From positions 1-28,821 of the forward strand of contig JALGVI010000037.1 in the NCBI GenBank assembly GCA_029838215.1: 28,821 nucleotides of DNA, in the 5' to 3' direction. Each line of letters opens with the position of its first letter. The first letter of the stretch is position 1. The translations under genes were made by a program, and so were the position numbers. This document shows positions 11,284-11,874 of this stretch, piece by piece. This stretch comes from Candidatus Helarchaeota archaeon. GTDB taxonomy: Archaea; Asgardarchaeota; Lokiarchaeia; Helarchaeales; RDOG01. A model generated the notes under the pieces. It searched no databases. It saw nothing but the letters and a program-made list of their open reading frames with translations, and was not told the DNA's origin.

Positions 11284-11874
11284 ATGATGCACGTCAAAAT
11301 CTTGAATGAAAAGTTCGTAAAAGAACATGTCCGAGCTGCTCATGCATATTATGAAAAATACAAATTAGATCCAAACTTTTCAGTAATTGCCATTGATTAC
11401 GTGATTCGGTACATTAAGGTCATCATGCCTGCCATTCCTCGAGACACGGAGGTATTATATGCGGCAGCTTATTTCATAGCACTTAAACATCCTTTTAGCT
11501 ACCCAAATTATCATACAAAAGAGAGCCATGCAAGGAAATTTGGCATCAAGGTTTCAAGCCTTAGCTGGTACGTACAACGGATTTTGGAGGATATTAATTT
11601 TATAAGGCTTCATGACGATCAGGCTCGTCCATATTATATTGATTCTAATAGCTTAATCTCCGCAGTTCTTCATTCCATCACTTCTGCGTCTCTACATGAA
11701 CACCTGATAAAAACAATCGTGAATGAAACCCTTCCCGATGTCTTTGAGGTTCAAGAAAAAGTCATTAGCACGTTAATTGAAAATTTGAGAATAATTCCTG
11801 AGGTCTTCAGGAGAGAATTACAATTTTACGTCCACGACCTCATCAAGGATCAGATCACGGCATTTAATGGATGA
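11284..11874 (+). CDS. Divergent single cyclin-fold / TFB-repeat protein lacking the Zn ribbon
   Basis: Residues ~17-104 align by eye with both repeats of the TFB in this window: RDTEVLYAAAYFIA vs RSIEAMVAASVYAA / KDPTGLAAAAIYIV; HTKESHARKFGIKVSSLSWYVQRILEDI vs [28 protein letters not shown]. GGAG precedes the ATG. Confidence 0.6.
   Translation: MMHVKILNEKFVKEHVRAAHAYYEKYKLDPNFSVIAIDYVIRYIKVIMPAIPRDTEVLYAAAYFIALKHPFSYPNYHTKESHARKFGIKVSSLSWYVQRILEDINFIRLHDDQARPYYIDSNSLISAVLHSITSASLHEHLIKTIVNETLPDVFEVQEKVISTLIENLRIIPEVFRRELQFYVHDLIKDQITAFNG

Follow-up and report, generated by a model that had tools for sequence, protein, structure and literature searches.

Does a small archaeal protein with a single cyclin box, encoded close to a canonical TFB, take part in transcription initiation, or has it another role? 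This question is raised by an open reading frame on the plus strand (11284..11874) of the window, i.e., the whole 28,821-nt stretch of Candidatus Helarchaeota DNA analyzed here. A canonical TFB, in which Pfam recognizes the Zn ribbon (2.5e-17) and both TFIIB repeats (1.1e-45), is encoded 2.3 kb away at 14133..15074. The initial annotation had termed the product of the small gene a half-TFB with one cyclin-fold repeat and had considered three roles for it, namely TBP/BRE competitor, alternative initiation factor or cyclin-like adaptor.

The gene and its family

Judged from the window sequence, the frame is a genuine gene. It encodes 196 amino acids, none of which is a cysteine, and is preceded, 4 nt before the ATG, by the Shine-Dalgarno-like ribosome-binding site GAGGTAGGAG (11270..11279, plus strand) that was read from the sequence. 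The intergenic region upstream contains an AT-rich TATA-like stretch at about 11133-11142, inverted repeats at 11096-11125 and 11149-11180, and TGATCCATGGATCA, a perfect 14-nt palindrome at 11176-11189. The repeats and the palindrome (11096-11189), described as lying just downstream of the TATA-like stretch, look operator-like and might possibly serve a 102-aa winged-helix (wHTH) protein encoded next to the cyclin-box gene (see below). The source genome harbors one copy of the gene, besides three full TFBs and one weak fourth match to the TFIIB repeat (E 6.3e-4, below the cut-off). The latter is located in a 364-aa open frame (G000:C23:41153-41365), which, going by this match, may encode another divergent cyclin-box protein.

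When 1.84 billion representative proteins were scanned in full, the 196-aa protein emerged as a stand-alone member of a cyclin-box family of 40 representative clusters for which Pfam has no model. Most members are about 200 aa long and match end to end. The family is restricted to Asgard archaea as found here, every named member being assigned to the Promethearchaeota, i.e., to Helarchaeales and to MAGs with Loki, Hod-, Hermod- and Odin-labels. The contig DATKTW010000017.1, which carries a family member, was deposited under a MAG named 'Candidatus Nanopelagicaceae bacterium' and is probably mis-binned, since all other named records are Promethearchaeota. Among 301 genomes of the phylum, 195 contained a match, including 72 of the 90 high-quality genomes, and the gene was usually present as a single copy; three family-level groups were essentially devoid of it (1/28, 0/11 and 0/21). 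Relatives on viral contigs were not found with two peptide patterns. Nearly all members are annotated as 'hypothetical protein', and one Odinarchaeia member was automatically named 'cyclin family protein' by NCBI. Our literature searches found no description of the family, which represents a new family with a new architecture inside a known fold superfamily.

The most conserved motif, R/K68-H69-P70-x-S72-x-P74-N75 (11485..11508, plus strand), forms the loop between helices 3 and 4 and is a candidate binding site according to column conservation; of the 28 sequences, 27 have P70. Further conserved positions are K89, S91, S92, L93, W95 and Y96 at the start of helix 5, D111, P116, Y117, D120 and P121 in the region of a hairpin following this helix, and P172 and F175 in the last helix. 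Fused paralogues of the protein, which are described below, retain the loop as HPxxYPN and a YY in the hairpin, and the AAAY motif of helix 3 is replaced in them.

Predicted fold and domain layout

The AlphaFold2 model, calculated with an alignment of 28 sequences, reached a pLDDT of 95.5 and a pTM of 0.89. It predicts three elements. Residues 10-104 (11311..11595, plus strand) form a five-helix cyclin box with helices at 10-25, 30-47, 55-67, 79-86 and 90-104. Helix 5 is followed by a conserved beta-hairpin or 'wing' (residues 107-119; 11602..11640, plus strand) with strands 107-110 and 116-119, a feature absent from the initial annotation. The remaining residues, 124-195/196 (11653..11868, plus strand), build a three-helix bundle (124-147, 153-167, 173-195), which, as indicated by the high pTM, packs rigidly against the cyclin box.

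For comparison with known structures, the model was searched with VIA-align against 48,161 PDB representatives. The top 32 matches were all cyclin-superfamily chains and all covered residues 1-123. Cyclin C superposed over 106 residues with an rmsd of 3.0 Å (Z 11.9), and the first repeat of P. woesei TFB over 99 residues with an rmsd of 3.1 Å (Z 11.2); human TFIIB (Z 11.6), cyclins A and B (Z about 10.5), Ccl1 and Brf1 were also among these matches. ORC6 (Z 8.5 and 6.6) and Rb (Z 7.1) scored lower. In an independent Foldseek search, all top matches were Brf2, TFIIB, Brf1, cyclins or TFB. Hence, residues 1-123 retrieved only TFIIB, TFB, Brf, cyclin, ORC6 and Rb folds, and no wHTH protein was among the VIA-align matches for this region. 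The best superpositions (Z 11-12, 99-107 aligned residues, 3.0-3.7 Å) are those of a cyclin-box fold. Taken alone, Z scores of 11-12 would be unremarkable for a helical protein; the assignment is made secure by the unanimity of both hit lists and by its agreement with the sequence profiles described below. Based on the model, it is therefore highly probable that the 196-aa protein contains one cyclin box, as the initial annotation had proposed.

With VIA-align, the C-terminal bundle (124-196) gave only generic matches to three-helix units with Z ≤ 7, and its profile showed no similarity to either TFB repeat (hhalign prob 0.3%). A degenerate second cyclin repeat, considered for this domain, was rejected at the profile level on the basis of this value. 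The initial annotation had correctly recognized an extra helical domain at the C-terminus; it comprises, however, about 73 residues rather than the about 90 stated, and we do not claim a novel fold for it.

Sequence relation to TFB and cyclins

Single-sequence comparisons did not reveal a relationship. BLASTP of the 196-aa protein against the neighboring TFB produced no alignment better than E 1.1, and this one lay outside the repeats; phmmer against the PDB found nothing, and searches of Pfam (E ≤ 10), NCBIfam and PHROGs returned nothing relevant; neither PF00382 (TFIIB) nor PF00134 (Cyclin_N) was reached. Profiles were more informative. The 28-sequence family profile matched PDB entries with E values of 0.008-0.25, aligning its positions ~9-104 with one cyclin repeat; the best of these were the TFIIB core (0.008-0.025), cyclin B1 (0.056) and archaeal TFB (0.12). 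When the whole-family profile was compared with a profile of 22 TFB sequences, an E of 7.5e-4 was obtained. In domain-wise hhalign comparisons, the same 78 columns of the N-terminal domain aligned with either TFB repeat, with a prob of 68% (E 4.8e-5) for repeat 1 and of 45% (E 2.2e-4) for repeat 2; the control alignment of the two TFB repeats with each other had a prob of 97%. The match to both TFB repeats that had been read from the sequence thus exists between profiles and is invisible between single sequences. The motif R-x2-E-x-L-x-AA cited in its favor is literally present at R53-E56-L58-A60A61.

At the level of individual members, 5 of 28 had sub-threshold matches to Cyclin_N (best E 0.0013) and 3 of 28 matched TFIIB with E ≥ 0.078. 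We conclude that the homology to TFB and cyclin boxes is remote and that neither the fold nor the profile scores decide between a TFB-like and a cyclin-like box. A separate lead from a protein atlas, the bacterial DUF6398 (PF19935), was discarded: it was not listed for the 196-aa protein at E ≤ 10, matched none of the 28 members at E ≤ 1, and its model misses the gene in a genome search.

Features that distinguish the protein from TFB

The Zn ribbon (PF08271), which scores 2.5e-17 in the neighboring TFB, is absent from the 196-aa protein, which has no cysteine and no corresponding Pfam match; this point of the initial annotation was confirmed. In the AlphaFold2 model, the cyclin box begins at residue ~10, leaving no room for a B-reader or B-linker, and both the model and hhalign show that a second tandem cyclin repeat is missing. 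The family furthermore lacks the strongly basic core of TFBs. Its members have a median pI of 6.5 and a net charge of -1 (N-terminal domain 0, HTH plus wing -0.5, C-terminal domain -2), compared to a pI of 9.75 and a net charge of +18.5 for TFB, about +16 of which is contributed by the core. Every testable defining feature of a TFB thus fails in the 196-aa protein.

The proximity of the tfb gene is not conserved either. A tfb gene was found within 8 kb of the family gene in 0 of 66 loci and within 1.5 kb in 0 of 19 loci, and tbp was nearby in 1 of 66. As there is no tfb in these 66 and 19 related loci, the one located 2.3 kb away in the window is a coincidental neighbor. Co-folding of the family with the TBP of the source genome gave a score of 0.01, which by the rule of the tool counts neither for nor against an interaction.

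Fusion proteins and genomic neighborhoods

In the long relatives P0035, P0040, P0043 and P0046, nearly the entire module (HMM positions 6-189) is preceded by two wHTH domains and followed by TPR repeats. P0010 is a membrane-anchored relative. The three multi-copy genomes that we examined, which belong to the same class as the source genome, each contain one stand-alone orthologue (E ~1e-60) and 3-8 large paralogues in open frames of 370-1006 aa, most of which match nearly the whole module.

In the window, the cyclin-box gene is followed after 16 nt by a co-directional gene (11890..12198, plus strand) for the 102-aa wHTH protein mentioned above. AlphaFold2 predicts for it an H-b-H-H-b-b-H topology (pLDDT 91), and Foldseek retrieved SarA, RosR, PadR/LmrR, AspA and F-93 with probabilities of 0.97-0.99, at E values of only ~0.02. 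The gene pair recurs with a 19-nt gap in one other genus of the same family (G304), and the two genes likely form an operon, which makes the wHTH protein a likely operon partner. At the sequence level, the 102-aa protein does not resemble the wHTH domains in the fusions, and the Rosetta-stone link between the two arrangements consequently rests on fold class only. Directly upstream of the cyclin-box gene and on the same strand lies a gene for a 272-aa protein (10267-11085) with an HExxH motif (HELYH) and no family match; it is not adjacent to the family gene in G304.

Other lineages show other neighbors. In 60 of the 66 Loki-type loci, a 148-aa RHH protein is encoded about 180 nt upstream in divergent orientation; of 13 members, 10 matched RHH_1 (best E 2e-6), and the highest-ranking PDB entries were ParG and E73. 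In three other Asgard families, the family gene is directly preceded on the same strand by a gene for a protein of ~180-200 aa, here called U, which has an N-terminal coiled coil and a conserved C-terminal alpha/beta domain with the signature NYGD...R...W..K. In two of these three families, a gene for an enzyme-like protein of ~250 aa, here called D, is located downstream. Neither U nor D has a match in PDB, Pfam or NCBIfam. U belongs to a large pan-archaeal cluster of 2444 members, mostly from Nitrososphaerota, and is thus distributed far more broadly than the cyclin-box family. Since both are unlinked to the family gene in the source genome (U is encoded at G000:C86:12037-12603) and U is pan-archaeal, they were set aside as specific partners. 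None of the conserved neighborhoods of the family gene contained a kinase.

Proposed role and alternative explanations

Cyclin boxes are protein-recognition modules, and in this family a non-basic cyclin box is recurrently fused, probably co-transcribed or divergently paired with small DNA-binding domains. For this reason, a protein-interaction module that acts together with sequence-specific DNA-binding partners is the best-supported explanation, which we put forward tentatively. The cyclin-like adaptor was one of the three roles offered by the initial annotation, and the charge, the missing polymerase-recruiting elements and the non-conserved tfb neighborhood favor it over the other two. The fold, domain limits, neutral charge, distribution, fusions and neighborhoods are observations; that the module binds protein rather than DNA, and that it works with the neighboring or fused DNA-binding domains, is how we would read them, with the same reserve.

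According to this proposal, the single cyclin box with its hairpin extension and the bundle packed on it would form a two-part module that lost, or never had, the Zn ribbon, B-reader and linker, second repeat and strongly basic surface. It would function as an adaptor or co-regulator of transcription regulators, paired with a sequence-specific DNA-binding partner. Where the module is located between two wHTH domains and a TPR array, as in the long relatives and paralogues, the partner would be present in cis; for the stand-alone form it would be supplied in trans, here presumably by the wHTH gene that follows after 16 nt. A putative conserved patch, to which the R-H-P-x-S-x-P-N loop, the first part of helix 5 (K-x-S-S-L-x-W-Y) and the wing (D...P-Y-Y-x-D-P) would contribute, likely serves as the working surface and may possibly contact the basal machinery or a signal.

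Some points count against the adaptor, one being that the 102-aa wHTH protein and the wHTH domains of the fusions are dissimilar in sequence. The neighbors vary by lineage, with wHTH here, RHH in Loki-type loci and U in three families, and because of these differences the DNA-binding neighbors could regulate the gene rather than act as partners of its product; the divergent RHH arrangement fits a regulator of the gene equally well as a partner. Moreover, helices 4-5 and the hairpin are, in the model, geometrically similar to a winged HTH.

The latter point leads to an alternative in which helices 4-5 and the hairpin bind DNA directly and sequence-specifically as a winged helix-turn-helix. It would be in line with the HTH-plus-wing geometry of the AlphaFold2 model, the conserved residues K89, S91 and S92 around the beginning of helix 5, the inverted repeats upstream of the gene and weak matches (E 0.06-1.2) of HMM positions 71-101 to wHTH domains in the fusion proteins. 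We nevertheless regard it as unlikely, as the HTH plus wing has a net charge of -0.5, the supposed recognition helix carries conserved W95, Y96 and I100, as is typical of a buried helix, the fusion proteins already possess two bona fide wHTH domains, and the fold matches for residues 1-123 include no wHTH protein.

Equally unlikely is a function as oligomerization or signal-relay domain of one-component regulators, with the stand-alone form modulating the large paralogues via mixed oligomers. The central position of the module between wHTH domains and sensor-like TPR arrays, and the presence of one stand-alone copy beside 3-8 fused copies in the three multi-copy genomes, would fit such a role. 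Most Asgard families, however, including the source genome, have only a single stand-alone copy and no fused paralogues, which implies a separate function for the stand-alone protein.

A more far-reaching proposal is that the cyclin box of this family had already given up DNA binding and its place in the initiation machinery, and that it represents an archaeal intermediate or sister between TFB repeats and the eukaryotic cyclin- or Rb-type boxes, a regulatory adaptor before CDKs existed. We consider this quite improbable in that specific form; the relevance of the family to cyclin origins, which had also been suggested at the outset, is plausible.

The chances are lower still for a proto-cyclin whose cyclin box would bind a kinase or some other enzyme and control it in the manner of the eukaryotic single-cyclin-box activators. 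The fold scores tie with those of cyclins (cyclin C, A and B), Cyclin_N was the commonest sub-threshold Pfam match, and cyclin B1 is among the family-profile matches in the PDB. Against this, there is no kinase in the conserved neighborhoods, DNA-binding domains and TPR repeats make up the surroundings of the module in genomes and fusions, and CDKs are reportedly absent from archaea (PMC12993045).

Finally, the protein might be a TBP/BRE competitor or alternative initiation factor whose one repeat, like a TFB repeat, binds to TBP and promoter DNA and either blocks or replaces TFB. This would agree with the profile match to both TFB repeats, the presence of R-x2-E-x-L-x-AA and of an HTH-like segment, and the equivalence of the fold to the first P. 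woesei repeat, but is very improbable for a one-repeat protein with a net charge of about -1 instead of about +16, a slightly acidic HTH plus wing, no Zn ribbon or B-reader and thus no TFB element for recruiting RNA polymerase, no conserved tfb or tbp neighbor, and an AAAY helix-3 motif that is replaced in the fused paralogues.

Other genes in the window

Directly after tfb, a 313-aa fusion of Roadblock/LC7 (5.7e-7) and a Ras-family small GTPase (4.5e-49) is encoded at 15156-16097 on the minus strand, a typical Asgard eukaryote-like signature protein. Between the wHTH gene and tfb lie a gene for a DUF2116 treble-clef Zn-finger protein (1.5e-5; 12274-12738, minus strand) and, after it, a pair consisting of an AbrB/MazE-type antitoxin and a PIN (VapC) toxin (12844-13661, plus strand). 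The stretch from 10 to 14 kb has a GC content of 0.31-0.37, compared to ~0.40 in the rest of the window. A TPR protein is encoded at 6836-8029 (plus strand) and ends with a lysine/arginine-rich tail of about 50 residues (KKVKKPKRAKKKKKAKKK...). At one end of the window (567-4699, plus strand), genes for two HGD-D subunits are followed by two for BcrAD/BadFG ATPases, which looks like a 2-hydroxyacyl-CoA dehydratase or benzoyl-CoA-reductase-type cluster. Towards the other end (24764-26941, plus strand), a 725-aa fused restriction-modification methylase of the Eco57I/TaqI_C type (type IIG-like) is encoded.

Comparison with known systems

The cyclin box is common to TFB/TFIIB, cyclins and Rb. With the core of archaeal TFB and eukaryotic TFIIB (PF00382), the family shares the five-helix box with a terminal HTH-like helix pair, an in-register profile alignment and Z scores of 11.2-11.6. 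It differs in that the second repeat, the Zn ribbon, the B-reader and the linker are absent, in being neutral rather than strongly basic, and in the addition of the hairpin, a longer conserved helix 3-4 loop and the three-helix C-terminal domain. Eukaryotic cyclins (cyclin C, A and B; PF00134) have the same fold with equal scores and are likewise non-basic and probably devoted to protein recognition; the family differs from them by its single box, by Cyclin_N matches that stay below threshold, in 5 of 28 members, and by the fact that no archaeal CDK partner is known.

Among archaeal proteins, Sulfolobus TFB3 is comparable in that it is a TFB-derived or TFB-like protein from which part of the canonical architecture is missing, in a genome that also encodes full TFBs (three in the present case). 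TFB3 has the Zn ribbon but not the core (PMC6101594, PMC6101591), whereas the family has one core repeat but not the ribbon; the initial annotation was right in describing this as the opposite truncation. ORC6 and the Rb pocket illustrate that cyclin-box folds can be reused for protein-protein contacts outside transcription initiation, but they score lower than TFIIB and cyclins, are eukaryotic two-box proteins and show no sequence signal.

In architecture, the family may be likened to the CDK activators p25/p35 and Spy1/RINGO, small regulatory proteins that consist of one cyclin box plus extra helices. To our knowledge, their kinase partners are absent from archaea. Archaea have been reported to lack CDKs and clear cyclin homologues (2026 review, PMC12993045). 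The 'Cyclin-like' entries in tables of Asgard ESPs are generic InterPro superfamily matches, and most of the non-Asgard reference archaea have them as well. According to a preprint of 2026 on TFB2 from Sulfolobus, such proteins still need to be analyzed in Asgard archaea if the transition from initiation-factor repeat to protein-recognition module is to be explained (10.64898/2026.09.06.749720).

For the route by which a DNA-bound initiation-factor repeat turned into a general protein-recognition module, the family offers a concrete candidate: a conserved, mostly single-copy, stand-alone and non-basic cyclin box, found only in Asgard archaea and without a Pfam model. The same module was recruited into an expanded set of wHTH-TPR regulators, and a new domain definition would improve the annotation of hundreds of Asgard genomes.
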